A program made the translations under genes and the position numbers. The notes below the pieces were generated by a model. That model made no database searches and was not told the DNA's origin. It saw only the letters and a program-made list of their open reading frames with translations. From a virus, in the IMG/VR virus record IMGVR_UViG_3300042564_004498, positions 32,001 to 96,000 of that record: DNA of 64,000 nt. The stretch is one strand, 5' to 3'. Positions 1-56,963 of the stretch are shown here, piece after piece. Numbering within the stretch: the first letter of the stretch is position 1; each line of letters starts with the position of its first letter.

Positions 1-626
1 AGTTGTTCTTCAGTGTATAAACTTGAGTATTCCCCAATAAATAAATTATCCCCTTTTTTTATAGAATTTTCCGATTTAGTTCTTGCAACAACCCCTTTAT
101 ATGCAACCGTTATATTTTTTTGTTTAAAATATTCTACCGTATCAAGAACTTTATCCCAATGCTCCGGGTCCATTAAAAGTCCAATACTCATCATAGCATT
201 TTTTCTTTGACCAATTTCAATTAATTCATCAAATTTAGAAAATTTAGCATATCTAGGGTGAAAACTTAAATGCACATTATTTGTTTTTTCAAAAAGTATT
301 TCCCACACTTCTTTAGGTGCACTCCCGTTACTATCCAAACTAACATTAAAATTATTATCATTAAAGAATGTTATTAATTCTTCAATACCCTCATAAAGAC
401 TTGGTTCTCCTCCTGATATTGACACAAACCTATTAGAATAATCATTAATTTGTGGATTTTCATTAATTAAGTTGGTGAAAAATTTAATATAAGTTTCTAC
501 TAATATCGGTTCTTCCGAACCATTATGAAGAATTGAAGGACAATATTTACAACGATAGTTACACGAATTTGTTACCGTTAGAGTTATATTAAACTCATCA
601 CTTACTATTGATTTTATTTTATTCAT
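1..626 (-). CDS. Radical SAM enzyme (3' end runs off the window)
   Basis: Not in the ORF track. Minus strand from ATG 626 reads MNKIKSIVSDEFNITLTVTNSCNYRCKYCP (CxxxCxxC), then SISGGEP and LDSNGS. ATGA overlap with the upstream gene. Confidence 0.9.
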   Translation of the reverse strand, partial: MNKIKSIVSDEFNITLTVTNSCNYRCKYCPSILHNGSEEPILVETYIKFFTNLINENPQINDYSNRFVSISGGEPSLYEGIEELITFFNDNNFNVSLDSNGSAPKEVWEILFEKTNNVHLSFHPRYAKFSKFDELIEIGQRKNAMMSIGLLMDPEHWDKVLDTVEYFKQKNITVAYKGVVARTKSENSIKKGDNLFIGEYSSLYTEEQ

Positions 627-1468
627 TTTATTTCGTTTAAAGTTTTAATTTCTAATTCGGTAATTAATTTATCTTTATTTGATTCATTAATAAAATCATC
701 CACATTATTAAAAATTTCACTTAATGAATATTTTGGGTTTTTTTTTTGATTTTGTTGTCCTGACACCACAATATCGTTCATTTCGTTTGGTTCCAAATTA
801 ATATATTTTATAATTTCAGAATAATGTTTTTTATAATCAACACCACATAATTGTTCATATGTTACTTCATGAATTGGTATGTCATGAGTTTCACATAATT
901 CTCTTACTTGTTTTTTTTCTGTTATCATATTATTCCGATATTTGGTATATTCATCATATTCTACATTTGTTTTGTTGTATTTATCAATAACAAATTTACT
1001 AAACTTACTTGAGAAATTGGTAACCCCTATTTTAGCTAATTTTCGAGAAAAAAATTGTAAAATAGTATTATCTCTTGTTAAATGAATTACCTTAATATTA
1101 TTTTCTTTAATATAGCATAAAAATTCATCCTCAATATTTCCTTCAACTATATGATTATTGTAAAATACCTTGAATCCTTGAATAGGTTTTTCTATTACTG
1201 ATAAAAATAAATTTAAATATTTTATAACATTTAAATTTCTATTATAAAGTATTTTTTTAGGGTCATTACCAGTTAATTTAATAATTTCTTGGTAAACTGT
1301 AGGGTTTTTATAAAGATGAAGTATTTTATTAATTGTAGTAATATAATTATTTTTTAAAATCTCGTGTTCAAACCTTACTCCTCTTTGATTGTTTAAAAAC
1401 TCAATTAACATATTAGACCCTGTCCTTGCTGTTGTAATTATTATAAAAGTTTCTTTAGTTGTCTTCAT
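623..1468 (-). CDS. Sulfotransferase (Stf0-like)
   Basis: N-terminal PAPS-binding loop TARTGSNML, GFK motif, VIHLTRDN, VTYEQL. Confidence 0.75.
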   Translation of the reverse strand: MKTTKETFIIITTARTGSNMLIEFLNNQRGVRFEHEILKNNYITTINKILHLYKNPTVYQEIIKLTGNDPKKILYNRNLNVIKYLNLFLSVIEKPIQGFKVFYNNHIVEGNIEDEFLCYIKENNIKVIHLTRDNTILQFFSRKLAKIGVTNFSSKFSKFVIDKYNKTNVEYDEYTKYRNNMITEKKQVRELCETHDIPIHEVTYEQLCGVDYKKHYSEIIKYINLEPNEMNDIVVSGQQNQKKNPKYSLSEIFNNVDDFINESNKDKLITELEIKTLNEIK

Positions 1469-2345
1469 TTCTATTTTTAAAATATTCTTCTATATGACTA
1501 AAAATTAAAATATCTGGTTCTTTATACCATTCTAAAATTCCGTCATTGTTTAACCTAATGGATTTAAATATATCCATATTTCTTGTGAATTTATTACGAG
1601 AAGTGTATTGTCTGTCATGTCTATCTCCATGATAGACATGATAGGCATTTCCAGTTATAAACCCAATTGATGGTGAACCCAAAGATTGAACCCATTTTTC
1701 AAATTCAACTAAATTACCTCCTAAGTTAAATCGGCAATTTGGGCTTAACTCATATTTTTTAAAAATATGACTCATTACATTATCCCCACCTCCCAACACA
1801 CAATAAGGGTACAACCCATTTGATTTTTTCCATTGAGCTCTTGTCATTGCCCAAGCAAATCCTGTGTGATATGGTTTTTTATCCCAAAGTTCTATTTTAG
1901 GGTGATTTTTTTCTTGGAATGACCCTATGGATGGTTTTTCCATAAATGGTGTCCCATCTTTATCTAGCCAATATGCTTGTTCAAATAATTGTATTATATC
2001 GTTTGTCTTGAGTTGATTAATAGACATCTCAACCCAATTTTTATTATCAAAAAAAATATCAGAGTCAATCCAAGCAATCAAATCGTATTCGTCAGGAACC
2101 AATTTTTCCGCAATATTTAACAAACATTCTTTTTGCCAAAAAATATTTTTATTAGGGTCTACTAAAATCTGAACCCAATTCTCATATCTCAATGTTTGAG
2201 ATTGTTGACTTGGTAAAAGTAATTCTACCCCAAAAACAGGAACGTTATCAGATGTCATTTTCCCTATAAATTGATGTAAATTATTTATAGGATTATTAAA
2301 ATCACTAAAGTTAAAATGACAAGTAATTACCGCAAGTTTACTCAT
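1455..2345 (-). CDS. GT-A fold glycosyltransferase
   Basis: WQKECLLN, AWIDSD (DxD), GFAWA, LGGGD, HVYHG. Confidence 0.7.
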   Translation of the reverse strand: MSKLAVITCHFNFSDFNNPINNLHQFIGKMTSDNVPVFGVELLLPSQQSQTLRYENWVQILVDPNKNIFWQKECLLNIAEKLVPDEYDLIAWIDSDIFFDNKNWVEMSINQLKTNDIIQLFEQAYWLDKDGTPFMEKPSIGSFQEKNHPKIELWDKKPYHTGFAWAMTRAQWKKSNGLYPYCVLGGGDNVMSHIFKKYELSPNCRFNLGGNLVEFEKWVQSLGSPSIGFITGNAYHVYHGDRHDRQYTSRNKFTRNMDIFKSIRLNNDGILEWYKEPDILIFSHIEEYFKNRNEDN

Positions 2346-2956
2346 ATATTAACATTTGATTTGGGAAATTCTTTATTAGGGATTGTTTTACCAAGGAAAG
2401 GACATAATAATTCCCACCCTTCACCGTTACAAATATTAATTTCTAAAAAATTAGGATTACCTTTAAAATACTCTTTAACTTTATTGTTATAGTCTTGATA
2501 ATAAGTGATAAAACTATCTTTTGTGAATTCAGTTGTATTAAAATGTTTTTTATACAAATCAATTTTCTTTTTTGTTTTCTCTTCGGTCTCGTGGAGATTA
2601 AGAGTTGAGGTTAACCATTTATTAACCGATTCCCACCATTCTTCATCATCTCTAATTGTTAAGATGAATTTAGAATTATAGTAATTTTTATCTAACCATC
2701 TGTATAAATTATTGGTATTGAATGGTCTATCTTTCATACATTCATACCCTGATATTAATTGTCTTAAGATATCATAATCTCTATTAAACCCTGAATTAAT
2801 AATATTATTATTTTTAAATTTGAATTTATTTGACATAACTTTAACCAGGGTAGGTTTATCAAACCCTGAGTAAATTTTTGTATAACCTAATTCTTTCCAA
2901 GCGTCAACTAAAGATGTTGTACCTGTTTTATTTAAACCAATACAAAAGACTTTCAA
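2342..2956 (-). CDS. Sulfotransferase family protein
   Basis: KVFCIGLNKTGTTSL, KFILTIRD...W..S, GEGWELLCPFLG...FPKSN. Start placed at the TTG just after the upstream stop (uncertain). Confidence 0.8.
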   Translation of the reverse strand: MKVFCIGLNKTGTTSLVDAWKELGYTKIYSGFDKPTLVKVMSNKFKFKNNNIINSGFNRDYDILRQLISGYECMKDRPFNTNNLYRWLDKNYYNSKFILTIRDDEEWWESVNKWLTSTLNLHETEEKTKKKIDLYKKHFNTTEFTKDSFITYYQDYNNKVKEYFKGNPNFLEINICNGEGWELLCPFLGKTIPNKEFPKSNVNI

Positions 2957-2957
2957 C

Positions 2958-3830
2958 TTATTGTCGTTTAACTGATGAAATGATGGCGTTAGCATCAAAT
3001 ATCTCAGACTCATCATTGTACGGGAACTCTAATAAATCACCACCTATATTGAATTTACTCAAATAAGCATTTCTTAATTCAGGTTTAACTGTAAAAATGT
3101 TTGATATAATATTATCGTGAATTTCATAACCAAATACATTTGGTTTATTAGTAATCCAACAAACTGTAGATGGTAACTCTAATGCTGCTGCGGTATGTTG
3201 ACAAAAACTGTCAATAAATAATCTTTTTCTACTAAGACTAATCAATACCGCCAACGCCCGAAATGAATCTGTAATAGGGATAGTGTTATCTAATGGAATT
3301 TGGTCTTCTCTTCTAATATGAATGATATTATAAACATCTTTAAATTCATTTACAATATCATTTGCAATACTTATTGGCATATCTCTTGACCAAGAGTACG
3401 CCATGTCTGATGGAGCACCACCATTTGTTTGTAGTAAAAATAGAGGTTTGTCAGAACTAAATTTATTACCAAAAAATTTAATTTCCCTATCTGTTAAAAA
3501 TATTCTTGGTGATTCACCGTTGTAAGGAATATTAAACATTTCACACCAAGTTTTAATTAGGTGTTCTTTTTGTTCAATATGTTCTGTTTGTAAGTAAGGG
3601 TCGTGAGCGAATATTTTAAATTCTTTATCTTCAATATACTCCTCATAAAAATAACTAAAACCTCCAAAGGCAAAGGCTCTGTCAACATTTGGGTTGTTTA
3701 AGAAAACATCAGGATAACCTGAAATAACAATTAATTTTGATTCTGGATATTCTTTTTTAATTGCTTCACAGACAGCGGTGGCTATAACACATTTACCGAT
3801 GCCTCCGTTAATTTGAAATACTATATTCAT
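2958..3830 (-). CDS. GT9 (heptosyltransferase-like) glycosyltransferase with Lys at the catalytic-Asp position
   Basis: MNIVFQINGGIGKCVIATAVCEAIKKEYP...VFLNNPNVD and FIDSFCQHTAAAL match the GT9 pattern. Confidence 0.8.
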   Translation of the reverse strand: MNIVFQINGGIGKCVIATAVCEAIKKEYPESKLIVISGYPDVFLNNPNVDRAFAFGGFSYFYEEYIEDKEFKIFAHDPYLQTEHIEQKEHLIKTWCEMFNIPYNGESPRIFLTDREIKFFGNKFSSDKPLFLLQTNGGAPSDMAYSWSRDMPISIANDIVNEFKDVYNIIHIRREDQIPLDNTIPITDSFRALAVLISLSRKRLFIDSFCQHTAAALELPSTVCWITNKPNVFGYEIHDNIISNIFTVKPELRNAYLSKFNIGGDLLEFPYNDESEIFDANAIISSVKRQ

Positions 3831-3899
3831 ATATTTTTTTGTTTAAAATAAATGTAAATAAATCCTTCAAATTAGTGAAGAGTTAAAAACAATTAGTTA

Positions 3900-4238
3900 T
3901 TAAATTCCATACATTCCCGTAGTCCCTGTAAGTACTTCAATAACATTAGTTCCCATTTGAGTAGCAATTTCATTTAAAATTACACTATCATCAAGACCCC
4001 AAGTTTCTAGTTTAGATTTACCTAAAGTAGTATTAAGATTAAGGATAGACCTGAAATTTGTAACAGTATTTCCTGAAATTTCTCCATTACCAAATACAAC
4101 CTCAAAATTTACTTTTGTTGCACCTAAAGGGTATGGTCTTGCGATAACTGCCATTAAATCGGCTGTTTGAGTAATTGCTGAAAATGGAGTAACTTGTTGA
4201 GTACTTGACGCTGGTGGATTAATTTTTCCGTATAACAT
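3900..4238 (-). CDS. Fibre-associated small protein (paralog of 4265-4600)
   Basis: Shares MLxGKIxP and L..WG.DDSV.L..IA..GT with its neighbour; follows the fibre gene. Confidence 0.6.
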   Translation of the reverse strand: MLYGKINPPASSTQQVTPFSAITQTADLMAVIARPYPLGATKVNFEVVFGNGEISGNTVTNFRSILNLNTTLGKSKLETWGLDDSVILNEIATQMGTNVIEVLTGTTGMYGI

Positions 4239-4264
4239 ATTTTTATATTTTTATATTTTATTTA

Positions 4265-4600
4265 TTAATAAGTGAAATGTGAATCAACAGTTATTTTTTC
4301 TGTTATTGTTGTTCCTATTTTTGAGGCAATAATGTCTAACACAACTGAATCGTCAACACCCCAATTAGATAATTCTTGAGTTGTTAAACTAACTCTATCG
4401 TTTAGTACAACATCAAATTCTTGTTTACCCGACGCATTAAGTATTAAATTACCAAATCTTAGTGTAAAATCAACTTCTGGCTCTCCAATAACATAATTTT
4501 CAGCCTTAACTGCCATATATTCAGCAGTAACTGTTTGAGACGAAAACGCACTTATTTGGTATGTTTTTGTAACTGATGGGATTATTTTTCCTAGTAACAT
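4265..4600 (-). CDS. Fibre-associated small protein (paralog of 3900-4238)
   Basis: MLLGKIIP...LSNWGVDDSVVLDIIASKIGT. Confidence 0.6.
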   Translation of the reverse strand: MLLGKIIPSVTKTYQISAFSSQTVTAEYMAVKAENYVIGEPEVDFTLRFGNLILNASGKQEFDVVLNDRVSLTTQELSNWGVDDSVVLDIIASKIGTTITEKITVDSHFTY

Positions 4601-4625
4601 ATTTTTTATTTTTTATTTTTTAATT

Positions 4626-7600
4626 TTATTTCCAAACTTCAACACCTAACCAACCATTTTTAGCGTCAATATCTTTTCTTGTTCCAATAATCAACACATT
4701 ATATTCTCCATCACAATTTGATGTAAAACTAACACATGTTTGTCCAGAATCTACAACACCATATGCACTACCAAAATGGTTTTTTGGTGTAACAAATACT
4801 TGGTCATCTTCATTTAAGAATTTATAATAATCAGGTAATGCTAAAGATGCACTACAATTTGTAGTCTCTATTTTGTATCTATAAATATTATCTCCTTTTG
4901 TTGGTGATTCCACAAATGAGTGTTGTAAATATTTTGTTTGTGTTTTACTTGGGTCTGGATGATTAATTCTAAAAGTACCACTGGCTTTTGATAAAGCATT
5001 TGTATATGTGGTACAAGAAGCCGCCGCAGATAAGTTAGACCCAACAATATTAGATTTGACATAGGTAGAGCCAATAGTATTACAAATTCCACCTAAAATA
5101 GCATTACAAGCATCAGAAATACAGTTACAAAAACCACCACCAATAAATGATAAACATGAAGTACCACAGTTGATAATTTGATTTTGGCATCCACCAACTA
5201 TTGTTGATTTACTAGAACAAATAGTGTTAGCAAAACCTCCACCAATAAATGAAAAAGTTGAAGTACCACAGTTGATAATATTATTACTATAACCACCGAC
5301 TATTGTTGAAAAACAAGAACAAATAGTGTTGACACAACCACCTCCAATAAATGAGTGATTTGAATCATTGCAGTTTTGAATACAATTCTTATAACCACCG
5401 CTTATTGTTGAATATTGAGAAGAGAGACAGTTTTGTCGACCACCACCAATTGTTGACATATAACCACAAATATGATGTTTATTTGCATACCCACCACCAA
5501 TAGTGTTATAACCGACCATTTCAATTAGGTTATTTTGTCCACCTGAAATGTTGCTAAAATAACCACAACGAATAATGTTTCCATAACCACCACTAATTGT
5601 TCCGCAGCTACTACCACATTCTATTTTGTTTCCACAACCCCCACCGATAAAACCGTTATTGGTACTAATACAAATATGGTTAAACTTTCCTCCTACGATT
5701 GAATTCATGTAACCTGTTGAGATAATATTTCTATCACCACCACCAATAAATCCACAATAAGTGTTTGATGCCGAATTGTATCTACCACCTCCAATAGTGT
5801 TCATATACCCATAAACTGAACAACTACCATATCCACCTCCAATTGTTGAAAAAGTACTACCCTCTAATTTATTAGCAACACCTCCAGCAATTGTTCCATA
5901 TGATGAGTTACCGTCAACCCCATTGCCATTACCACCTCCAATTGTTGACGCATAAGCATAACCACAATTACCAACTCCTCCACCAATTGTTGAGTAGTTG
6001 CTGGACGATGTATTACCTCTCCCACCAGCAATCGTACTACTTATCCCGCAATTACAATTTAAGGCACCACCACCAATTGTTGAACAGTTGTTTAATGTTA
6101 TGCAGTTGCAGGCTCCACCACCAATTGTTTGATAACTCCCAGAAACACTATTTAATCTACCACCCCCTATGAAATCAAAACTTCCACAAGAGCAGTTACA
6201 ACAACCACCACCAATTGTTGATGCGGTAGTATTAACACTTCCATAATCACCTCTTACCGTATTACATAGTCCACCACCAATTGTAGCAAAACAATGATTA
6301 CCTGCAGTATAATTACAAAATCCACCACCAATTGTTGAAACAACAACTTCTGCCCTATTAAGACAACCACCACCAACTGTGGAACCATAACTAGTAGAAT
6401 TACAGAATCCTCCTGCAATTGTTGATAAACATCCTGTGGCTGTATTTTGAAATCCTCCACCAATAAAACTATATTGTCCTGCAACACATGCGAATGGTGC
6501 TGTGGTAAAAACACATGAGAATCCACACCAAACACCTCCACAGGTGTTATTTCCAACACCTCCGGCAACTACCGCACCATAGGATAAACATCCACAAGTG
6601 GAATTACATACAAAATTACAGTTACCTCCTCCAATAAATGAAGCAAATCCATTAGATTTATTATTAATACCACCACCAATTGTTGAGGTTTGACCTGAAA
6701 CACTATTACCTGTTCCACCTCCAATTGTTGAATATTCTCCTAAATTACAATTGTTATTACCACCCCCAATTGTTGAATAATTACAACACATTTTATTACA
6801 TAGACCACCGGCAATTACACTATATGAACCACCACCAATGGTATTAAAAAACCCACCACCAATAGTTGCATCACCACTTATGTTTGAGTTGCAACGACCA
6901 CCACCAATAAAACCGTAGTTGGCACTGACAGTATTACGAAAACCACCACCAATTGTTGACCAGCTACCATAACCACATGCCTGATTACAACAACCACCAC
7001 CAATTGTTGAACCTCCACTAGCACTTTCTATTAAGTTACAACAACCACCACCAATTGTTGAAGATTCACCATAACCACTTATAGTATTACGACGACCACC
7101 ACCAATTGTTGAAACAGGAGAAGTAGATGCGGTATTACAAATACCACCACCAATTGTTGAACCTGAAGAATCTACATCTACGATGTTACAAGAACCTCCT
7201 GCAATTGTTGATAAACATCCTGTGGCTATATTTCGAAATCCTCCACCAATAAAACTATATTGTCCTGCGTTACATGCCGTTGGTGCTACGGTGAAAGCAC
7301 ATGAGGCTAATGTCCAAGTCCCACCACAGGTGTTATTTCCAACACCTCCGGCAACTACCGCACCATAGGATAAACATCCTGAAGTGGAATTACATACAAA
7401 ATTACAGTTACCACCACCAATAAATGAATCAATTGAATAAGAACGATTAGAACGCCCACCACCAATGGTTGAACGACAACAACATGTTTCATTAGAACGC
7501 CCACCACCAATTGTTGAACCCTCACTATATGCAAAATTATTACTCCCACCACCAATGGTTGCATACGGAGCACTCAATTGGTTTTGGAACCCACCACCAA

Positions 7601-8417
7601 TAAAGGAATAATTACTATTGCTATTAATGCGGTTATTAAATCCACCACTAATTACGCCACGATTACTACCAGTATTAATTATATTAAAATCTCCTCCTGC
7701 AATTGTTGAAAATGAATTCGTGGTTATAATGTTACTAGCTCCTCCTCCAATAAATCCACAATATGACGAACTCGTTGTATTTTTATCACCACCAGCAATT
7801 ACATTTGAACAACCATAACTACTCATTGTATTTTTACATCCACCACCAATGAAGGACCTACAATTGTTAATATTAATACTATTAAGATATCCACCTGCTA
7901 TGGTAGAAAAACTAGTACATACATTATTACCAACACCTCCACCTATTGTTGAATAAGAACTGTTTGCGTCTGTGCAATTACTACCGCCACCCGCAATTGT
8001 TGAAGAATAACCACAACTGTAATTACCAAAACCTCCACCAACAGTTGAATAGACGGAATTTGATACATTTTGTCGACCACCACTAATTGTATTAGTGGGT
8101 CCGCAATTAGAATTATAAACACCACCGCCAATTGTTGAGAAGCAACAAACCACACAGTTATTACAACCTCCACCAATTGTTGAAGAAATCCCGCAATTGC
8201 ATATTGTATTACAATTCCCTCCACCAATTGTTGCACAATTAGCATTACAACTTGTGTTACAAGTTCCGTTCACAAATGAACCAACTCCTGTTGCAGTGTT
8301 ACCTGTACCAAAAGTAATACTTCCACATGTACCTTGACATAATCTTTGGACTACGTTTGATGCTGTGCAAAAATCAATCTTACTCTGTCCTGGGGTTATT
8401 AATATATCTTGAGCCAT
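4626..8417 (-). CDS. Cys/Gly-rich repeat fibre (tail or head fibre, beta-solenoid)
   Basis: Dozens of ~14-16-aa (S/G)(T/F)I(G/A/S)GGxxN repeats. C-terminal KASGTFRINHP...LQHSFVESP domain typical of phage fibre C-termini. TATTTAT upstream. Confidence 0.8.
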   Translation of the reverse strand: MAQDILITPGQSKIDFCTASNVVQRLCQGTCGSITFGTGNTATGVGSFVNGTCNTSCNANCATIGGGNCNTICNCGISSTIGGGCNNCVVCCFSTIGGGVYNSNCGPTNTISGGRQNVSNSVYSTVGGGFGNYSCGYSSTIAGGGSNCTDANSSYSTIGGGVGNNVCTSFSTIAGGYLNSININNCRSFIGGGCKNTMSSYGCSNVIAGGDKNTTSSSYCGFIGGGASNIITTNSFSTIAGGDFNIINTGSNRGVISGGFNNRINSNSNYSFIGGGFQNQLSAPYATIGGGSNNFAYSEGSTIGGGRSNETCCCRSTIGGGRSNRSYSIDSFIGGGNCNFVCNSTSGCLSYGAVVAGGVGNNTCGGTWTLASCAFTVAPTACNAGQYSFIGGGFRNIATGCLSTIAGGSCNIVDVDSSGSTIGGGICNTASTSPVSTIGGGRRNTISGYGESSTIGGGCCNLIESASGGSTIGGGCCNQACGYGSWSTIGGGFRNTVSANYGFIGGGRCNSNISGDATIGGGFFNTIGGGSYSVIAGGLCNKMCCNYSTIGGGNNNCNLGEYSTIGGGTGNSVSGQTSTIGGGINNKSNGFASFIGGGNCNFVCNSTCGCLSYGAVVAGGVGNNTCGGVWCGFSCVFTTAPFACVAGQYSFIGGGFQNTATGCLSTIAGGFCNSTSYGSTVGGGCLNRAEVVVSTIGGGFCNYTAGNHCFATIGGGLCNTVRGDYGSVNTTASTIGGGCCNCSCGSFDFIGGGRLNSVSGSYQTIGGGACNCITLNNCSTIGGGALNCNCGISSTIAGGRGNTSSSNYSTIGGGVGNCGYAYASTIGGGNGNGVDGNSSYGTIAGGVANKLEGSTFSTIGGGYGSCSVYGYMNTIGGGRYNSASNTYCGFIGGGDRNIISTGYMNSIVGGKFNHICISTNNGFIGGGCGNKIECGSSCGTISGGYGNIIRCGYFSNISGGQNNLIEMVGYNTIGGGYANKHHICGYMSTIGGGRQNCLSSQYSTISGGYKNCIQNCNDSNHSFIGGGCVNTICSCFSTIVGGYSNNIINCGTSTFSFIGGGFANTICSSKSTIVGGCQNQIINCGTSCLSFIGGGFCNCISDACNAILGGICNTIGSTYVKSNIVGSNLSAAASCTTYTNALSKASGTFRINHPDPSKTQTKYLQHSFVESPTKGDNIYRYKIETTNCSASLALPDYYKFLNEDDQVFVTPKNHFGSAYGVVDSGQTCVSFTSNCDGEYNVLIIGTRKDIDAKNGWLGVEVWK
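6401..7428. repeat. ~240-bp internal duplication in the fibre gene (6401-6642 and 7187-7428)
   Basis: Near-identical flanks with a divergent ~55-bp centre. Confidence 0.9.
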
Positions 8418-8488
8418 CAATTAAATTCGTTTCTTATAAATACACGATAAAAAGAAATTATCACATATAATAACATTTAGTTCATCCA

Positions 8489-9307
8489 TTAATTAAAATA
8501 TAAATAGTTTTTATATTCACTTAACCCCAACTCCAAATTGTATTGTGGTTTCCACCCTTTCATCCATTTGTCTTTATTAGAACAAGTGTAGAATTGATAC
8601 CCTGTCGGGATTAGATTTTCATTATGATATGTAAATGGTATTTCCATGATGTTCATTACATCTTCAAAACTTCTTGATTCCCCGGAACCCACATCGTAAT
8701 GATTAAGATTTAATTCATTATAATTTAGAAATCCAAAGATGTTTGCTGATACAACATCTTTAACATAAATGAAATCCCTTGTTGGGTTTTTTGGAAATAA
8801 TTTACATTCATTACCAAGATTATGTTTGATAAATGACTGGTAGGCAACTGAAGACATTTTTCCCTTATGTTCTTCTCTTGGTCCATAAACATTAAAGTAT
8901 CTAAGACCGATTCCATTATTTGAGATTACATATTGTTCAGCGACGTATTTACTCCACCCATATAAGTTTGATGGATAATTATTGTTTTCACCATAATTGG
9001 CAGCTGATGATGAGTAGATTAGTTTGGAGTTATTTTCTTTACTCCAATCCGTTAACACTTTTGTAAATTCAAAATTTAATACCATCATGTAGTTAACATC
9101 TTTTTCCAAAGTGTCCGAACAGGCTCCGACATGAAAAATTCCTTGAGGGTTATGTTTTATTAGAGTTGATACTAAATCTGATTTCCAATTGTCTGATTGA
9201 AATATGTCTTCGTTTATTTCAATAACCTTATAATTCAATGATATTAATTCTTCTTTAAGGTTTTGACCAATAAATCCTTTTGACCCTGTTAATAATACTT
9301 TTATCAT
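8489..9307 (-). CDS. hldD: ADP-L-glycero-D-manno-heptose-6-epimerase-like NAD-dependent epimerase
   Basis: TGSKGFIG, FHVGACSDT, YSSSAANYG, YGWSK, LRYFNVYGPREEHKGKMSS, YQFYT. Confidence 0.85.
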   Translation of the reverse strand: MIKVLLTGSKGFIGQNLKEELISLNYKVIEINEDIFQSDNWKSDLVSTLIKHNPQGIFHVGACSDTLEKDVNYMMVLNFEFTKVLTDWSKENNSKLIYSSSAANYGENNNYPSNLYGWSKYVAEQYVISNNGIGLRYFNVYGPREEHKGKMSSVAYQSFIKHNLGNECKLFPKNPTRDFIYVKDVVSANIFGFLNYNELNLNHYDVGSGESRSFEDVMNIMEIPFTYHNENLIPTGYQFYTCSNKDKWMKGWKPQYNLELGLSEYKNYLYFN

Positions 9308-10044
9308 GGTGTGGCAACCCCTCTTTTTGATACTACGATTGATGCCATTTTATTGGCGAAGATTATAGATTCCTCAACATCTTTGGTTTCCAAATATTTT
9401 AATGTGAATGATGATGTGAAAGTATCTCCTGCCCCACTAACATCAATGGTCTCCTTTGGGTTAGGAGATGGATAAATTTTACCTTGGTATTTGGCACCGT
9501 TACTTCCAAGTGTAATAAGAAGTTTATTTAATGAGCTATCATTAAAGTTATGTTTGGAAAATTCAGATTCGTTTAACTTCACAAAATCAAATTTATTAAC
9601 AAGGTCATCTCCAATTTGTTTCTTTGTGTCAATAATTGAGAATTGAGCGTGTTTGGTTATTTCAAATAATACCTCATCATTAAGGAATCCTTTATTATAA
9701 TCACTTATAATAACTGCATCCACATTTTTTAATGCGTTTAACTTTGAAATATTTAATTCTAATGGTTCAATATCAGATTCACCCTCATCAACTCTTAAAA
9801 ACATATGATTACTTTTCTTATCAACATATCTTGTTTTTGTAATGTCTTTGTTTTGGTACCAATGAATGATATGTAAATCTTTATTCAAAGATTTTAAGTT
9901 CTCAACAACATTACCTGACATACCTTTGTTTTCCGTTGTCTCTATTGGTGTTAATACGGGCACAGGCGCTTCAGGAGACAATCGTTTTGTCTCCACATAA
10001 ATAAATCTATCTAAACACAACTCACCTATTACTATTATTCTCAT
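9304..10044 (-). CDS. Heptose-7-phosphate kinase (RfaE/HldE kinase domain, PfkB family)
   Basis: RLSPEAPVPV, ISDYNKG, DVSGAGDTF. Confidence 0.9.
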   Translation of the reverse strand: MRIIVIGELCLDRFIYVETKRLSPEAPVPVLTPIETTENKGMSGNVVENLKSLNKDLHIIHWYQNKDITKTRYVDKKSNHMFLRVDEGESDIEPLELNISKLNALKNVDAVIISDYNKGFLNDEVLFEITKHAQFSIIDTKKQIGDDLVNKFDFVKLNESEFSKHNFNDSSLNKLLITLGSNGAKYQGKIYPSPNPKETIDVSGAGDTFTSSFTLKYLETKDVEESIIFANKMASIVVSKRGVATP

Positions 10045-10423
10045 ACTTCAATATTTTTGTTGTACTATAATCTAGTAGTTTTTTATAAAACACTAATTCT
10101 TTTGCGTGTTCACTACCATAAACAATTTCATTCCTATAGTCATCACCAACCACCATATAATCAGGTTGATATTCTTTCACACAATTAATTAGTTCTTCTC
10201 TTGAATCAAACACCACGACTTCATCCACAAATTTTAATGACTGAAGAAAATATTTTCTATCCTCAACATTATTAAATGGTCTACTCTCACCTTTAAGTTC
10301 TTTCACCCTTTTGTCCGAATCTATTCCAACCACTAACACACCTAAAGATTTGGCGTATTCCAACATCTTAAGATGTCCGGCATGAAGAACATCAAATGTT
10401 CCATTTACCCAAACTTTTTTCAT
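10022..10423 (-). CDS. Heptose-1-phosphate nucleotidyltransferase (RfaE/HldE domain II-like)
   Basis: NGTFDVLHAGH, KGESRPFN, VGDDY, YSTTKI. Confidence 0.85.
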   Translation of the reverse strand: MKKVWVNGTFDVLHAGHLKMLEYAKSLGVLVVGIDSDKRVKELKGESRPFNNVEDRKYFLQSLKFVDEVVVFDSREELINCVKEYQPDYMVVGDDYRNEIVYGSEHAKELVFYKKLLDYSTTKILKYENNSNR

Positions 10424-10725
10424 AGTTCTTCTATCCTTATTGACTTATCACAAATGTATAAATCATAATGTGGTTTATGGTTCATCCTTAGTTCGTGGAA
10501 TTTACATCCCCAATCGTTAAGTTGTTGTTTTGTTAATTCTACATAGTCAACTTTTGTTGCCGCACCTCTTGCAGTATAATAAACAATTGTATTACCTTGG
10601 TCATACAATTTATTTATTTTAGATATCTGTTCTAATCGTGGTGCTGCATCAGAATAAGGTTTTGCTATTGTGCAAATTGTCCCATCGATGTCTACATAAA
10701 TTACTTTTGGCTGTCTCCCTTCCAT
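10420..10725 (-). CDS. Small HAD-superfamily phosphatase
   Basis: VDIDGTIC, YYTARG, KPHYDLYICDK. Confidence 0.8.
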   Translation of the reverse strand: MEGRQPKVIYVDIDGTICTIAKPYSDAAPRLEQISKINKLYDQGNTIVYYTARGAATKVDYVELTKQQLNDWGCKFHELRMNHKPHYDLYICDKSIRIEEL

Positions 10726-11087
10726 ACTCTATATGAATCTGAATCAAAATGTTCTGTTGATACTTCAAACACTACCCCATCGGTTATTGCTTCCAATTGA
10801 TGAGGTTGACCTGGTCTTTGTCTAACCACATCACCAACTTTAAGATGTTGTTCAATTACTTCTGCGGTTTCGGTATTAATCCATCGGTAAATAAATTCAC
10901 CTTCATTCACATACCAAGTCTCATCCTTAATCATATGATAATGCATTGAGAATTTTGCGCCTTGTCTAAACCGAAGTAATTTTCCGCAATATAATTCATG
11001 ATTGGCAATAATGATTTCTTCGCCCCAACCTTTTGGGATTTTGCAACCATCACATTCAATCACATTAATAACTTTGGGTGTTTCCAT
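10701..11087 (-). CDS. Cupin-fold sugar-phosphate isomerase-like protein
   Basis: KGWGEE...SMHYHMIKDETWYV...PGQPHQL...EVST. Confidence 0.8.
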   Translation of the reverse strand: METPKVINVIECDGCKIPKGWGEEIIIANHELYCGKLLRFRQGAKFSMHYHMIKDETWYVNEGEFIYRWINTETAEVIEQHLKVGDVVRQRPGQPHQLEAITDGVVFEVSTEHFDSDSYRVWKGDSQK

Positions 11088-11123
11088 AAGATAAAAGTAA
11101 TCTCATCACCAAAATTTGTAAAC

Positions 11124-11157
11124 AAAAAACCCTTCTTAGGAGAAGGGTTGTTTTTTT
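11124..11157. terminator. Bidirectional intrinsic terminator
   Basis: AACCCTTCT-TAGG-AGAAGGGTT flanked by A and T runs. Confidence 0.75.
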
Positions 11158-11996
11158 CTTTTAATTGTTTTGGTATCGTTATCTTTAACAGAGTAAATTA
11201 CAAACACATCTTTCTGTGGATAAATTAAAATGTCCACGGCTTTATGTCTTCCTTTACTAACATCTTTCTTGAATGACTCACCTTGTCCTTCACTTGATTT
11301 CACTTGTATTGTTTTTACCTCACCTCTTGAAGATTTGAAAATTAAATCTGTTGAGAATATCATATCAATAAAATCTCCGTCTCCACCTTGGTATAATAAT
11401 TCATAACCTGGTATTGACCCAATTGTATCGGCAACTTCATTTTCAATTTTTTCTCCCCATTCAGAATTTCTTCTAATATTGGTAGTGTAATCCAATAATT
11501 CATTGGGAGAACTCAAATATTGACTAAAAAGACCTGATAAGTTGTCTTTATACTTCAATAATACTTCTTTTACCTCATCTTCATCTTTGGAATTACTTAT
11601 TGTGTTAATAATTTCAGTAGCGGCTGGACGACCATTATTTTTAGATAAAAATAACAAATCGGTTAAAAGTTTAGCTAAATCGGAAAAATTTGTGTTTAAT
11701 TTGTTAACAGGATGCCATTTACCATCAATATAAACTAATCTTTTACTTGGAAGACTTTCCAAAAATCTATTATAAGTGTAATCATTGATTTTACCGTTAT
11801 CTTTTAAGATATTGACCCCCATAATATATCTTTCAATATCATCTTCTCCAATATTTGTTTTGATTTCATCAAGAATATTATCGATTATTGATTGTAAACC
11901 TAAACCATCATTTCTTGATAACCAAGATTTTAACTTATTCAACGAGTTGAATATTGACTCATGGTCACCTTCTCTTTGTTCTTTTATTAATTTCAT
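11136..11996 (-). CDS. Tagged protein with C-terminal PD-(D/E)xK-like nuclease domain
   Basis: MKLIKEQ leader; E...IDMIFSTDLI...TIQVKS. Confidence 0.55.
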   Translation of the reverse strand: MKLIKEQREGDHESIFNSLNKLKSWLSRNDGLGLQSIIDNILDEIKTNIGEDDIERYIMGVNILKDNGKINDYTYNRFLESLPSKRLVYIDGKWHPVNKLNTNFSDLAKLLTDLLFLSKNNGRPAATEIINTISNSKDEDEVKEVLLKYKDNLSGLFSQYLSSPNELLDYTTNIRRNSEWGEKIENEVADTIGSIPGYELLYQGGDGDFIDMIFSTDLIFKSSRGEVKTIQVKSSEGQGESFKKDVSKGRHKAVDILIYPQKDVFVIYSVKDNDTKTIKRKKQPFS

Positions 11997-11997
11997 A

Positions 11998-12858
11998 TTA
12001 ATGCTGTACTCTTAATCTATCGGTATTATATCCCAAACTTTGTATTAACTCACGAACTTCTTCAGTAAAAGTTGATGTATGTCTCCACGCATTACTTTTA
12101 AAAGTTAAGTTAATTAGTCCACCAACATTATTAGTTGATGTATTAAATTTCACTGAGTGTAATACTTGGGAATTAGGGAGAGCTCTAATTTTCTTTTTTA
12201 TTTCTTTATTTAATGTTTGTTTGACCCATTCATCGACCCCCTGATATACAAATGCACCACTCATATTTAAATCTAATTTTCCGTGGGTAACACTACCAAT
12301 TTCAACACCAATAAAATTAGTTAATGTTTCCATAAAGTCATTTCCCAATTCCGCGGCTCGATAATTTTTTTCAGATTTATCACGAATTGACTTATCAAAA
12401 TCAACACTAAAAAAACCATTTACAACATAAGGAGAATCTTCAGTTAAATTAAGTGTTATCCATTCAGGTAACTCTAACCTATCAGTAAAAAAAGTAATCG
12501 CCTTTTTGTACCTTTCAAGAAAAAGTCCTTCATTTTTAAGACTTGGCATTTTGTGAACGCCTTTTTGTGCTAATTCTCTTCCAACATTAACCATAGTACG
12601 ATAAGCACCATAATAACCTGTAACCACATCAGCAGCGCCATAATCTTCTGCAAATTCTTTCATATGATTTTTAATCAATAAAGAAAGAGGGTATTGACCT
12701 ATTTCATCACCGTGGTTTTTTTTAACCCATGGTCTAAAATAGTTCACAAAAACTTCAACAAAGTCTTCATCCTGGTATTCTTTTGGATTAAAACTTTCTA
12801 AGACAGTTCTTACAACTTTCTCAAGGTCAGATTCGGTAAGTGTGTGTATTTTTTTCAT
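11998..12858 (-). CDS. Tagged hypothetical protein
   Basis: MKKIHTLTESDL leader; TATTTAT-N5-ATG. Confidence 0.75.
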   Translation of the reverse strand: MKKIHTLTESDLEKVVRTVLESFNPKEYQDEDFVEVFVNYFRPWVKKNHGDEIGQYPLSLLIKNHMKEFAEDYGAADVVTGYYGAYRTMVNVGRELAQKGVHKMPSLKNEGLFLERYKKAITFFTDRLELPEWITLNLTEDSPYVVNGFFSVDFDKSIRDKSEKNYRAAELGNDFMETLTNFIGVEIGSVTHGKLDLNMSGAFVYQGVDEWVKQTLNKEIKKKIRALPNSQVLHSVKFNTSTNNVGGLINLTFKSNAWRHTSTFTEEVRELIQSLGYNTDRLRVQH

Positions 12859-55280: not shown

Positions 55281-56129
55281 TTATAAATCTAATTCTATTT
55301 GTTTGTTTTTATCTATAAAGTGTTGAACTCTATCAGTGGCCACTTTGGTATAATTCTCACTTAATTCAATCCCTATCCATCGTCTTCCACTTACTTCAGC
55401 AGCAACTAAACTAGTACCACTACCTGTGAATGGGTCCAAAACAATATCATTCCTATATGTTAATATTTTGATTGCCTTTAATGGTATATCCATTGAGAAT
55501 GTCGCTTTGGTTTGTTGTTTAGTATCTGCAAAATATTCCCATTGTCCATATACTAAACTCATAAACTCTTTCTTATCCTCATCTTGATACATCATCTTTT
55601 GTTTAATAGTACCATCCTCTTGTTCTAAATCAACCAATTCTCCTTTCCATTGTGATTCACCCTTAACCTTTTTAATACGGTCTTTCTTATAGGCCAATAC
55701 TACACACTCTTTTGGATTATAAATGTATGGACTACTTGGTGACATCCATGAACCCCAAGCTGTGGTTTTACTTCTGTGTGGTGAGTTCTCATCAAGGTCT
55801 ACAAGCCCATAGAATTTAAATCCAACTTTCTTCATCACCGCCCAAAATTCAGACATAAATAATACTCTACCACCTCTATCTTGTACATTTACTTCATAAG
55901 GTATGTTTATTGCAACTCTACCATCATCTTTTATTAACCGATATGCCTGTGTCAACCATTGTTCTGTAAATTCCCAATACTCATCCATCATCATTCTATC
56001 GTCATGACTATCATAATCAATACCAACATTATATGGTGGAGAGGTTACAATTAAATCAATAGTTGACTCAGGAAGTTTAGCCATCTCAACAATACAATCT
56101 CCTTGAATAATTCTTTTTGTTTCTAACAT
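55281..56129 (-). CDS. Beta-class amino-DNA methyltransferase (probably N4-C)
   Basis: IVTSPPYN preceding VLDPFTGSGTS; IGIEL. Confidence 0.9.
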   Translation of the reverse strand: MLETKRIIQGDCIVEMAKLPESTIDLIVTSPPYNVGIDYDSHDDRMMMDEYWEFTEQWLTQAYRLIKDDGRVAINIPYEVNVQDRGGRVLFMSEFWAVMKKVGFKFYGLVDLDENSPHRSKTTAWGSWMSPSSPYIYNPKECVVLAYKKDRIKKVKGESQWKGELVDLEQEDGTIKQKMMYQDEDKKEFMSLVYGQWEYFADTKQQTKATFSMDIPLKAIKILTYRNDIVLDPFTGSGTSLVAAEVSGRRWIGIELSENYTKVATDRVQHFIDKNKQIELDL

Positions 56130-56530
56130 TATAATTTACCTTCTTGTTTTAATTGTTCTCTTATTTTGGTGGCTGAGATATCACTCACTTCTTGAGGTGG
56201 TAAATGCTCTATTATATCGTAACCAACTCCTCTTCCAAAATTTACCGATTCAACATCAGGGATTACCATAACCTTAACTCTTCCCTCAATAATTAAATCA
56301 TATAACTTGATAAGGATATTTTCATAAACTTCTTGTGCTGTGAATGGGTTCTGTTCGTTAGGTTCTATGTCTCTAACACAGATTAAAACATTCTTACCTT
56401 GTTCAAGTCTTTGGTCTATCAACCATCTGTGCCCATCGTGCCATGGTTGCCATCTTCCAATAAACATTGAGAATTGTTTACCAGGGTTATTTTTTAATTT
56501 TGGGTCTCCTTCTATGTGTATCTTTTCCAT
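56129..56530 (-). CDS. HxGH nucleotidyltransferase (cytidylyltransferase-like)
   Basis: FIGRWQPWHDGH, NPF, GRGVGY, ISATKIR. Confidence 0.8.
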   Translation of the reverse strand: MEKIHIEGDPKLKNNPGKQFSMFIGRWQPWHDGHRWLIDQRLEQGKNVLICVRDIEPNEQNPFTAQEVYENILIKLYDLIIEGRVKVMVIPDVESVNFGRGVGYDIIEHLPPQEVSDISATKIREQLKQEGKL

Positions 56531-56531
56531 A

Positions 56532-56963
56532 TTATTTTTTAAATATTTTTTCAACACATTCGGCAACAGTGATGTTGTCGGTGCACATGTCAATGTAATT
56601 TTCTGTTGGTGGTTCATAGTCTTGAACAAAGAATTGTTCCCTACCTCTTACCTCTGAAGTATAAACATAAACTTCTTTTATTGCATTTTCAAGTTTCTCT
56701 TTGAATGCATCTCTTTGTCCTTTGTAAGGAGACACTAATGATACTAAAACATTTTGTCCTTTGGAGTGAAGATATTGAGCCAAATGTTGAGCTAATTGTA
56801 TATTCTTCATTCGTCCTTCTTTTGAATAATCTTTATTATCAAATAATTCTCTAATATCATCACCATCAATATGGTACCAATTATTGAAGTACCTTAACTC
56901 CATAATTGATTTTGCCAATGTTGTCTTACCTGCACCAGGTTGTCCTGTTAACCAATAAATCAT
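56532..56963 (-). CDS. cysC: Adenylyl-sulfate (APS) kinase
   Basis: WLTGQPGAGKTTLA, IDGDDIR, YSKEGR, SLVSPY, YEPP. Confidence 0.85.
   Translation of the reverse strand: MIYWLTGQPGAGKTTLAKSIMELRYFNNWYHIDGDDIRELFDNKDYSKEGRMKNIQLAQHLAQYLHSKGQNVLVSLVSPYKGQRDAFKEKLENAIKEVYVYTSEVRGREQFFVQDYEPPTENYIDMCTDNITVAECVEKIFKK

Follow-up and report, generated by a model that had tools for sequence, protein, structure and literature searches.

The question raised by this locus is whether a phage that carries a Cys-rich tail fibre, a glycosyltransferase (GT)-like gene and sugar-nucleotide genes side by side glycosylates its own fibre and, if so, on which residues. The stretch of DNA analysed (the window, 64,000 nt) comes from an uncultured marine T4-like phage of the pelagimyophage type, and every gene in its positions 1-12000 is on the minus strand. 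The initial annotation proposed that the phage makes a nucleotide-heptose and attaches it to the fibre Cys by means of a GT9-like enzyme lacking a catalytic base. We put at roughly 0.55 the probability that the module is a phage fibre-decoration set within a host-recognition cluster, and at the same level both an action of the enzyme on the fibre and glycosylation of the fibre. The genes at the centre of this reading are the following.

4626..8420, minus strand: Cys-rich tail fibre (UspA1/YadA-like repeats and a phage tail-fibre C-terminal domain)
4265..4600, minus strand: small Cys-free protein, 111 aa, paralogue 1 (a homologue is next to the GT in related loci)
3900..4238, minus strand: small protein, 112 aa, paralogue 2 (evidence as for the first paralogue)
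2958..3830, minus strand: GT9-fold GGxGK transferase, 290 aa (AF2 model, structure matches and WaaC/WaaF alignment)

The fibre ORF encodes 1264 aa from a TTG start, or 1263 aa if the next codon, an ATG, is taken as the start. We counted 94 Cys (7.4% of 1264 residues), seven times the usual level and in agreement with the 90-95 (~7%) estimated at first by hand, together with 20.5% Gly, 12.3% Ser, 10.8% Asn and 8.9% Thr. ORFs of 100 aa or more, taken over the whole 145.5-kb record, average 1.5% Cys, and the other large proteins all have 3.9% or less. About 60 STIGGGxxN repeats are present, with 60 [IV][GAS]GG anchors spaced mostly by 15-17 residues. Searches of Pfam, PHROG and NCBIfam gave no matches for the fibre; phmmer aligned it with the UspA1 head (PDB 3PR7, E 9e-14), and its C-terminal 174 aa match annotated tail-fibre/virion proteins of P-SSM2, P-SSM5 and S-TIM phages. 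The heads of Moraxella UspA1 and Yersinia YadA are trimeric autotransporter left-handed parallel beta-rolls and, by homology, the 15-17-residue STIGGGxxNxAxG-type repeats of the phage protein are predicted to fold in the same way, so that the fibre is, judged from its sequence, an adhesin-like beta-roll on the UspA1/YadA head plan. Unlike UspA1 and YadA, it has no membrane anchor and ends in a cyanophage-type tail-fibre domain. The predicted model of the fibre is poor (pLDDT 55); the logic of the repeats suggests that the Cys point outward.

As claimed at first, the Cys are at variable repeat positions and also in the non-repeat C-terminal domain, which has four (1136, 1189, 1229 and 1236). 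Precisely, in the repeats they fall only at registers +4, +5, +7, +9 and -6 to -3, making up 9-17% of every variable register (0-0.7% in the Cys-poor relatives analysed, which hold polar or charged residues there) and 0% of the core registers, hence never at the conserved I0, G1-3, N6, residue +8, S-2 or T-1. Cys retention over 36 related pairs was 0.65, like that of Tyr, Arg and Ala and under those of Trp (0.80) and Gly (0.87), so that the Cys turn over at the pace of other surface residues. Among 2788 rungs, no register pair was enriched in Cys within or between rungs, the i/i+2 pair +5/+7 was avoided (24 observed vs 46 expected, z -4.5) and rungs with a single Cys were slightly over-represented. 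Such a distribution speaks against ordinary disulfide or metal-site Cys and bears out the irregular scatter described in the initial annotation.

The same data bear on an explanation in which the Cys cross-link or stabilise the fibre in oxic seawater after release, through disulfides or metal, and the GT9-like protein has nothing to do with them, being for example a non-catalytic assembly factor. Disulfides are frequent in extracellular proteins, two more large, likely structural proteins of this phage reach 3.6-3.9% Cys, and GT9-like folds can be non-enzymatic, a chloroplast NDH subunit being among the fold matches of the enzyme. Random oxidative cross-linking of the fibre Cys may occur. However, the sites are not conserved one by one, their pairing is as described above and the GT shows almost no variation at its donor-site residues (see below), and we consider this explanation very improbable.

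The enzyme is encoded by the third gene downstream of the fibre and begins with MNIVFQINGGIGK. Its AF2 model (pLDDT 97.5) has GT9 proteins as best structural matches (Foldseek E 3e-12 to 1e-7), with VIA Z of 20-23 for GT9 chains vs 11 for the next GT-B families, and the family comprises 768 representatives at E<=1e-3. The protein falls short of PF01075, of the TIGR heptosyltransferase models and of TIGR04414. In full-length hhalign alignments with WaaC (E. coli sequence taken from NC_000913.3) and WaaF (probability 83-90%), K13 falls on Asp13 of both, as had been noted for WaaC, and 60 of 63 homologues, which go down to 28% identity, share this Lys; heptosyltransferases all keep Asp at this position (PMC5713226). 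The enzyme is probably catalytic, since its donor motif D207-S208...H212, kept in 61 of the 63 sequences, aligns with WaaC D261-T262...H266, and the D261A change in HepI costs about 2000-fold in activity (PMC5713226). In the acceptor domain, His90 is kept in 48 of the 63 and Asp/Glu77, which adjoins the invariant Pro78-Tyr79, in 56; the latter could be a relocated base, so the description of the enzyme as base-less is not established. The related argument, that a thiol acceptor needs less help from a base, is weakened as well: the S-glycosyltransferases known so far still rely on ordinary catalytic machinery.

The small proteins encoded between fibre and enzyme fall in virus-only clusters without a family. 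In 32 of 85 related loci a homologue immediately precedes the GT, and they are candidates for a fibre chaperone or a tip protein.

The pairing of fibre and enzyme is not limited to this phage. Of 52 non-identical IMG/VR loci, 37 have the GT downstream of an IGGG fibre at a distance of at most 2.5 kb, and these 37 fibres have a median Cys content of 3.3% (at least 2% in 34 of them) vs 1.0% for other ORFs. The same pairing was found on a 37%-GC MAG contig, and in the cultured Pelagibacter phage HTVC111P gp53 (GGVGK, 25% identity) comes after gp52, a tail fibre with 12 Cys and YadA-like repeats, the other tail proteins having 0-4 Cys. We tested co-occurrence by an unbiased scan for the pattern YSTIGGG, in which most records are fragments and whose statistics ignore phage relatedness: the GT was in the record for 46 of 68 fibres with at least 2% Cys and for 6 of 21 fibres with at most 1.2% (Fisher p 0.002). 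In near-complete records, it accompanied 5/5 Cys-rich and 0/5 Cys-poor fibres (p 0.008). Two apparent exceptions (G080 and G064) carry a Cys-rich IGGG fibre elsewhere, and no Cys at all occurs in their other giant virion proteins. The association of GGxGK enzymes with Cys-rich fibres foreseen in the initial annotation was thus found, and the data support that the enzyme and the Cys-bearing UspA1/YadA-like fibre type belong together and are genetically coupled.

The closest known arrangement is that of TibC/AAH with TibA/AIDA-I (BAHT; TIGR04414; PDB 4RAP/4RB4), in which a cytoplasmic GT9-fold enzyme, whose gene adjoins that of a repeat beta-solenoid adhesin, hyper-glycosylates this beta-helical adhesin with ADP-heptose (PMC4358343). 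TibC is among the best structural matches of the phage enzyme (Z 20.1, rmsd 2.9, 257 residues aligned). The phage enzyme differs in having Lys in place of the catalytic Asp110, in lacking the four-Cys iron finger and the N-terminal extension and in being paired with a trimeric-adhesin-type beta-roll that bears many Cys instead of with a Ser-acceptor beta-helix. With WaaC/WaaF (CAZy GT9, Pfam PF01075) it shares the GT-B fold (Z 20-21) and the D(S/T)xxxH donor motif, whereas their genes are in an LPS core context and the phage gene is in a virion-fibre context. The chemistry proposed for the phage is that of the glycocin S-glycosyltransferases SunS, ThuS and PalS (GT2), which put a sugar on bacteriocin Cys and represent the only established bacterial protein S-glycosylation (PMC6405829, PMC12457901). 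Those enzymes have a GT-A fold and modify one or two Cys of a small peptide, whereas the phage enzyme, GT-B/GT9-like, would act on tens of sites of a virion fibre.

The acceptor could instead be Ser, Thr or Asn, as in AIDA-I/TibA, with the GGxGK enzyme using Asp/Glu77 or His90 as a relocated base, or extending a heptose placed by a BAHT enzyme, and with the Cys serving another purpose. The repeats contain 21% Ser+Thr, which dominate registers +7 and +9, the acid at position 77 is conserved, and a canonical BAHT (TibC/AAH-family) O-heptosyltransferase with the Asp (TIGR04414, 205 bits, cut-off 200) is encoded elsewhere in this genome, and 19 of 45 related records have one as well; in L054, L063, L065 and L067 the GGxGK gene comes directly after a BAHT fusion gene. 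Moreover, Cys in the repeats takes the place mainly of acidic residues and not of Ser/Thr, and since no Ser/Thr depletion was seen where Cys was gained, there is no sign of a swap from O- to S-acceptors. This explanation leaves unaccounted for both the tracking of Cys-bearing fibres by an enzyme that is absent with Cys-poor, equally Ser/Thr-rich beta-roll fibres, and the Asp-to-Lys change at a position kept by all heptosyltransferases (PMC5713226). We consider it unlikely.

As regards the donor, the genes upstream of the fibre form a five-gene cassette.

10701..11087, minus strand: cupin, first gene of the cassette (Pfam Cupin_2 E 6e-8; weak D-lyxose/mannose isomerase match)
10420..10725, minus strand: minimal HAD phosphatase, 101 aa (weak matches: PF25109 E 1.4e-3; TIGR01689/TIGR01662 E 2e-3 to 7e-3)
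10022..10423, minus strand: heptose-1-phosphate adenylyltransferase-like, HldC / HldE domain II (TIGR02199 E 5.8e-30, 104 bits, cut-off 181.5; CTP_transf_like E 2.7e-18)
9304..10044, minus strand: heptose-7-phosphate kinase-like, HldA / HldE domain I (TIGR02198 E 1.2e-38, 133 bits, cut-off 345; PfkB E 1.6e-19)
8489..9307, minus strand: ADP-glycero-manno-heptose 6-epimerase-like, HldD (TIGR02197 E 1.5e-53, 182 bits, cut-off 274.6; Pfam Epimerase E 5.6e-29)

The nucleotide-heptose pathway of the initial annotation is recognisable, with the HldD and HldE-domain matches all under the NCBIfam equivalog cut-offs. The cupin has a readable H-x-H...E...H metal motif, matches phrog_7851 (E 2e-35, labelled 'cysteine dioxygenase') and is the first cassette gene in 7 other loci too; a GmhA of the SIS type was not found within the 145 kb of the record, and the cupin is a candidate sedoheptulose-7-P isomerase replacing it. 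The minimal HAD, whose position is kept in 6 loci, is a candidate GmhB substitute. The claim that heptose is the donor of the GGxGK enzyme lost ground: only 8 of 85 loci have the cassette at 10 kb or less from the enzyme, it adjoins the BAHT gene in four other records and, given the BAHT enzyme of this genome, the heptose may feed that enzyme, a more orthodox ADP-heptose user, instead.

Downstream of the GT, the region continues with genes that could tailor a glycan.

2342..3016, minus strand: sulfotransferase, Sulfotransfer_4 (Pfam PF17784 E 5e-32)
1455..2345, minus strand: candidate GT-A glycosyltransferase, 296 aa (ESM-Atlas nearest clusters)
623..1468, minus strand: weak sulfotransferase-like protein (PF13469 E 3.6e-3, under cut-off)
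1..626, minus strand: radical SAM enzyme, 336 aa in full, extending past the window start (PF04055 E 1e-10)

The neighbouring GT of the initial annotation (1455-2345) had no HMM match in Pfam, NCBIfam or PHROG. The ESM-Atlas clusters lying nearest to it are 'glycosyltransferase family protein', GT2 and GT7C, and from these language-model features it is possibly a GT-A enzyme. Its sequence contains a DSD motif, and the gene directly follows the GT in L001-L004. The radical SAM enzyme had no specific subfamily, its best NCBIfam models (generic activase, viperin, QueE) being all far under their cut-offs. Past its gene, outside the window, are a 297-aa protein of no assigned function, two further sulfotransferases and an FkbM methyltransferase.

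Such genes in pelagimyophage host-recognition clusters have been interpreted as modifying the host surface (PMC7029224). Accordingly, the sugar genes could be auxiliary and remodel the host envelope (LPS core, O-chain or capsule), for example to block superinfection, their adjacency to the fibre reflecting only a hypervariable host-recognition cluster. It fits with this that LPS cores are the classical GT9 substrates, that the tailoring genes are variable and cassette-like between loci and that a second glycan cluster is present elsewhere in the genome. In contrast, the GT-after-fibre order persists in phages that differ widely, one of them a 31.6-kb phage with no other sugar genes in its 13.6-kb tail, lysis and right-end region, the enzyme lacks the Asp kept by every LPS heptosyltransferase (PMC5713226), and the co-occurrence with Cys-bearing fibres would have no explanation. 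We regard this alternative as quite improbable.

In fibre glycosylation as we propose it, the GGxGK transferase would work in the cytoplasm, while virions are being assembled or earlier, and attach a sugar to side chains exposed on the fibre repeats. The donor would be a nucleotide sugar, here, we infer, most plausibly ADP-heptose from the neighbouring cassette, and the variable tailoring genes (four sulfotransferases, the methyltransferase, the possible GT-A and the radical SAM enzyme) may then elaborate the glycan. The ~90 evenly scattered surface Cys would be the leading candidate acceptors, because the enzyme family tracks Cys-bearing fibres and the Cys behave as independent single sites; overall, S-linkage is a tentative and rather doubtful proposal. 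What stands of the original S-linked scheme is the GT9 fold, Lys13, the linkage to the fibre and the Cys pattern; the heptose link is weakened and the base-less claim is not established.

Mycobacteriophage virion glycans are reportedly O-linked, borne by the C-termini of capsid and tail-tube proteins and made by other GT families; unlike the fibre described here, that system has no Cys-rich substrate. Virion glycosylation by phages does exist there, own structural proteins being decorated by phage-encoded glycosyltransferases (Freeman et al. 2023, PMC10527164, as cited in PMC10568470). For the marine phage considered here, the locus means that its fibre is probably sugar-coated by the phage itself, a sugar-to-sulfur bond being a possible means of attachment.

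The source record is linear and 145.5 kb long, with an estimated completeness of ~48%, and the G+C content of the window is ~31%. Every gene in the first 12,000 nt of the window (1-12000) lies on the minus strand, and the genes around the fibre are, in coding order:

10701-11087, minus strand: cupin, first in coding order
10420-10725, minus strand: small HAD protein
10022-10423, minus strand: adenylyltransferase-like protein
9304-10044, minus strand: PfkB kinase-like protein
8489-9307, minus strand: SDR epimerase
4626-8420, minus strand: Cys-rich tail fibre
4265-4600 and 3900-4238, minus strand: two paralogues of 111/112 aa
2958-3830, minus strand: GGxGK enzyme, 290 aa
2342-3016, minus strand: Sulfotransfer_4 protein
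1455-2345, minus strand: 296-aa unknown protein
623-1468, minus strand: weak sulfotransferase-like protein
overrunning the window start, minus strand: radical SAM enzyme
past the window start: 297-aa unknown protein, two further sulfotransferases and an FkbM methyltransferase

The arrangement agrees with that of the pelagimyophage "host recognition cluster", in which tail fibres lie amid glycosyltransferases, rfaE and radical-SAM cassettes (PMC7029224). The closest phage-database relatives of the GGxGK enzyme come from one marine single-cell virus and two Pelagibacter phages; a search of the phage collection for near-identical DNA gave no match. The phage also encodes an SmpB homologue (L089:1610-2038, i.e. 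G000:C1:27610-28038; PF01668, E 2e-43). Window 56129-56963 (minus strand) holds a 143-aa APS-kinase-like P-loop protein (PF01583, E 2e-18) and, overlapping with it, a 166-aa nucleotidyltransferase-like gene. The pair may be a minimal phage-encoded source of PAPS for the four sulfotransferases; a classical ATP sulfurylase was not found in the 145.5-kb record.

The initial annotation had described the fibre as Cys-rich, and the exact count bears this out, with 94 Cys among 1264 residues (7.4%) vs 1.5% in the ORFs of the record of at least 100 aa. Sixty [IV][GAS]GG anchors, most of them at a spacing of 15-17 residues, run through the protein, and its repeat region matches the head of the Moraxella adhesin UspA1 (PDB 3pr7, E 9e-14), a YadA-like left-handed parallel beta-roll (LPBR) with layers of 15 residues (PMC9543794). 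The sequence features examined as marks of a YadA-like head, similarity to a solved LPBR head and a 14-16-residue repeat in which Gly is invariant and a core residue is small, are found in the fibre. Trimeric autotransporters end in a C-terminal outer-membrane beta-barrel anchor, whereas the fibre has none and carries a cyanophage-type domain instead, its last 174 residues matching annotated cyanophage tail-fibre or virion proteins. A head of this type would form a homotrimer with a beta-roll fold; a single-sequence AF2 model of residues 421-620 had a pLDDT of 55 and no Foldseek match at E<=0.001; the matches of this low-confidence model were generic solenoids with E>0.2.

Residues 334-405 and 596-667 of the fibre form a near-exact internal duplication of ~70 residues. 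Part of the duplicated block is an insertion of 35 residues, Cys among them, into the repeat array, and the second copy has gained extra Cys. Two further large, likely structural proteins of the phage (L087:2867-5437 and L087:7003-10338, within G000:C1:121866-129337) contain 3.9% and 3.6% Cys, hence a raised Cys content is not wholly limited to the IGGG-repeat fibre. One of the two has a weak SprB-repeat match.

Numbering the repeat registers from the Ile (I0), the Cys of this fibre are confined to the variable registers, with none at I0, G1-3, N6, +8, S-2 or T-1. Fibre homologues are either Cys-rich (2-9%) or Cys-poor (0-0.7%). Comparing 186 Cys-rich with 52 Cys-poor fibres register by register, Cys makes up 9-17% of each main variable register, about 4% of registers +10, -6 and -5, and 0% of core registers; with the gain of Cys, Asp/Glu decreased and Ser/Thr did not. 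The registers that hold Cys carry polar or charged residues in the Cys-poor relatives, from which we infer that the fibre Cys are exposed.

The initial proposal of sugar-bearing Cys competes with the possibility that the Cys cross-link the fibre. Fibre pairs were chosen by k-mer pairing and then aligned pairwise; in 36 independent related pairs, Cys retention was 0.65, no better than that of Tyr, Arg or Ala and lower than that of Trp (0.80) and Gly (0.87). Such retention is, on these alignments, unlike that of structural disulfide Cys. Among 154 non-redundant fibres (2788 rungs), no register pair was enriched in Cys, whether the two registers lay on one rung or on neighbouring ones (70 tests, z at most 3.0). 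Rungs with a single Cys were slightly over-represented, and the +5/+7 pair in the same repeat was half as frequent as expected (24 observed vs 46, z -4.5). The pattern speaks against disulfides or metal sites laid out by design and would fit many independent, spaced surface sites; we regard cross-linking as quite unlikely. The avoided +5/+7 pair corresponds to i/i+2 thiols on one strand face (154 Cys-rich fibres, loci L001-L211 and P0271-P0390).

Two other fates of the Cys were considered and set aside. Thioether cross-linking by the radical SAM enzyme was rejected because this protein belongs to no specific subfamily and has no homologue in the 85 related loci. S-sulfation was rejected because the sulfotransferases are not conserved with the module: the Sulfotransfer_4 protein has a homologue in 1 of 85 loci and the protein at 623-1468 in none. 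One sulfotransferase resembles the carbohydrate sulfotransferase NoeE.

The GGxGK enzyme was modelled by AF2 with 63 homologues as input (pLDDT 97.5), and the top structural matches of the model were all GT9: 3tov, WaaF, WaaC and TibC (Foldseek E 3e-12 for 3tov, 7.5e-11 for 1psw and about 1e-8 for WaaC, ranging up to 7e-7). VIA Z values were 23.2, 21.2 and 20.1 for GT9 matches vs 11.4 for the next GT-B family. Taking a GT-B fold closest to solved GT9 structures as the definition of a GT9 fold, the predicted structure has one. Family models matched far less: there was no Pfam match at E<=0.01, PF01075 included; the best NCBIfam heptosyltransferase model (TIGR02193/02195/02201) reached E 0.09 and 11.8 bits, with cut-offs of at least 170; and TIGR04414, the model of the bacterial autotransporter heptosyltransferases (BAHT; TibC/AAH), was not among the family-model matches. 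PDB sequence searches gave no match with a shallow alignment and one weak match (WaaF, E 0.013) with a second one.

Aligned by hhalign to single WaaC or WaaF sequences, the enzyme matched in its C-terminal domain alone. The replacement of the catalytic Asp13 of WaaC by Lys, noticed at first by eye, was recovered in a full-length profile alignment (probability 83-90%) that puts Lys13 on Asp13 of E. coli WaaC and WaaF, the N-terminus being aligned only with a two-sequence GT9 profile and a low-mact or global setting. Of 63 family members, with identities down to 28%, 60 keep Lys13, and so does gp53 of the cultured phage HTVC111P at 25% identity. Asp13 is common to all heptosyltransferases, and its change to Ala costs about 4700-fold in activity (PMC5713226); its TibC counterpart is Asp110 (PMC4358343).

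On the donor side, D207-S208...H212 aligns with D261-T262...H266 of WaaC, the D(T/S)GxxH motif, and is kept in 61 of 63 sequences; this near invariance suggests that the GGxGK enzyme is catalytic. The phosphate-binding Lys192 of WaaC stands opposite Tyr145 in one alignment and in a gap beside Arg149, conserved in 58/63 sequences, in another. Position 77, directly before the invariant Pro78-Tyr79, is Asp/Glu in 56/63 members, and His90 is conserved in 48/63; in the three members that lack Lys13, the acid at 77 is missing too. Hence, of the claim that the enzyme is base-less, the loss of Asp13 stands, but, given the conserved Asp/Glu77 and His90, it is just as likely that the base has moved or that Lys and an acid act as a pair. 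The five Cys of the enzyme are scattered (14, 21, 96, 210, 224), with no CxxC, so that it lacks the four-Cys iron finger of TibC (C339, C342, C358, C370; PMC4358343). It differs also from the glycocin-type S-glycosyltransferases, which have a GT-A fold (GT2), in having a GT-B fold. Two homologues contain one in-frame TGA each (G117:C1:2967-3851 and G123:C1:15028-15912), which could be a sequencing error, a pseudogene or recoding.

The GGxGK enzyme is genetically tied to the fibre. We found 80 IMG/VR loci with the enzyme, of which 52 were non-identical and had sufficient upstream sequence; in 37 of these 52, the nearest large upstream gene was an IGGG-repeat fibre, at most 2.5 kb away. The linked fibres had a median Cys content of 3.3% (range 1.2-7.6; other ORFs, 1.0%). 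In 32/85 loci, a homologue of the small 111-aa protein lay between fibre and enzyme. The pairing was found again in a MAG contig of 37% GC and in the cultured 31.6-kb Pelagibacter phage HTVC111P (gp52/gp53), whose tail fibre gp52 has a different YadA-like repeat and 12 Cys. The genes of the bacterial TibC/AAH enzymes likewise adjoin the gene of their beta-solenoid adhesin substrate. A search for related loci with the Cys-poor fibre P0310 as query gave no match.

Co-occurrence of the enzyme with Cys-rich fibres across phages, an association predicted in the initial annotation, was evaluated by scanning the viral collection with a Cys-blind DNA pattern for YSTIGGG and then searching whole records for the enzyme. 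It was present in 46 of 68 records with fibres of Cys>=2% vs 6 of 21 with fibres of Cys<=1.2% (p 0.002), and in 5/5 Cys-rich vs 0/5 Cys-poor near-complete records (p 0.008), counts that are uncorrected for relatedness and come mostly from fragmentary records. Two loci in which the enzyme lies beside Cys-free or collagen-like fibres (L054, L070) were dropped as counter-examples, because a Cys-rich IGGG fibre lies elsewhere in their records, G064 (38 Cys) and G080 (64 Cys); other virion proteins of these records (900-3800 residues) have zero to three Cys. At L049 the enzyme adjoins a Cys-free or collagen-like fibre, an apparent counter-example. The fibres at L070:5688-9704 and L054:17919-20864 are built of collagen-like GTS/GTN triplets (18-25% Gly, 33-46% Ser+Thr, almost no Cys) and have a gene of this enzyme family and a BAHT gene as neighbours.

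As for the donor, the kinase, adenylyltransferase and epimerase of the heptose cassette had TIGR02198 (E 1e-38), TIGR02199 (6e-30) and TIGR02197 (1.5e-53) as best models, all below equivalog cut-offs. Gene order is conserved (cupin, HAD, adenylyltransferase, kinase, epimerase), and the block recurs, cupin first, at window 8489-11087 and in L025, L026, L030, L032, L055, L066 and L074; the HAD was not detectable in the L032 copy. No SIS-type GmhA (SIS_2) was found in the 145.5-kb record, which makes the cupin, first here and in 7 other loci, a plausible isomerase; since the cassette recurs in the same order, the cupin appears to be an isomerase that stands in for GmhA without being its orthologue. 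PHROG labels the cupin "cysteine dioxygenase", a label set aside for this sugar-phosphate isomerase role because of the fixed place of the cupin in the cassette.

Outside the window, the same genome encodes a 757-aa GT4-GT9 fusion (L213:6536-8809, i.e. G000:C1:139535-141808). Its C-terminal half scores 205.4 bits with TIGR04414 (cut-off 200), and the protein keeps the canonical "SIGD" Asp and a CxxC-x15-C-x11-C array spaced identically to the TibC iron finger (PMC4358343). These sequence features identify the C-terminal half as a genuine O-heptosyltransferase of the TibC/AAH family. Of 45 related records, 19 carry a BAHT gene, and four of these 19 have it beside the heptose cassette, so ADP-heptose has an orthodox consumer. 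In related phage records the BAHT family is often found as fusion proteins of 1130-1180 aa. A second sugar cluster adjoins the BAHT fusion of this phage (L213:194-6467, i.e. G000:C1:133193-139466), with a DegT-type aminotransferase fragment, a methyltransferase, two hexapeptide acyltransferases and several unknowns.

The heptose link is therefore less firm than initially proposed: the cassette adjoins the fibre here, but no more than 8/85 loci have it at a distance of up to 10 kb from the enzyme (there ~2.1 kb downstream of it), and the BAHT would be a rival user of ADP-heptose. Heptose may be the donor of the GGxGK enzyme or the sugar that it extends, or the enzyme may take a different donor. 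With an O-heptosyltransferase in the genome and Ser/Thr undiminished in Cys-rich fibres, a fibre glycosylated through an O-linkage rather than on Cys is a possible, if doubtful, reading; on the other side stands the association of the enzyme with Cys-rich fibres. The sugar genes of the pelagimyophage cluster have been interpreted as host O-chain modifiers (PMC7029224), and modification of the host surface would suit such a layout; set beside the pairing of enzyme and fibre genes, we hold it to be unlikely.

The best-supported reading, by analogy, is a phage fibre-decoration module that would work like AAH/AIDA-I, with Cys as the leading candidate for the acceptor on the fibre. In its full form, to which we give a probability of about 0.2, the GGxGK enzyme would be a protein S-glycosyltransferase putting phage-made heptose on tens of surface Cys of the fibre, the heptose being later sulfated and methylated, and the canonical BAHT would take the serines, in an O/S division of labour.

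In the limited literature searched, we found no published description of Cys-rich fibres paired with a GGxGK enzyme. If S-heptosylation is true, the fibre would become the first viral glycoprotein with an S-linkage and the enzyme the first S-glycosyltransferase of the GT-B/GT9 type. S-glycosylation would also gain a new class of enzyme. S-glycosidic bonds are resistant to glycosidases and of interest to glycoengineers. Cysteine is costly for SAR11-type hosts, which lack sulfate reduction, SAR11 not being established as the host of this phage; a linkage to sulfur would explain this costly trait. The cultured HTVC111P gp52/gp53 pair puts the question within direct experimental reach. If such phages, abundant in the ocean, glycosylate the receptor-binding fibres of their own virions, predictions of host range and structural studies of fibres that are blind to glycans would be incomplete. 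Were the linkage to sulfur, it would also account in concrete terms for the many glycosyltransferases of pelagimyophage host-recognition clusters, now read as host-LPS modifiers (PMC7029224).
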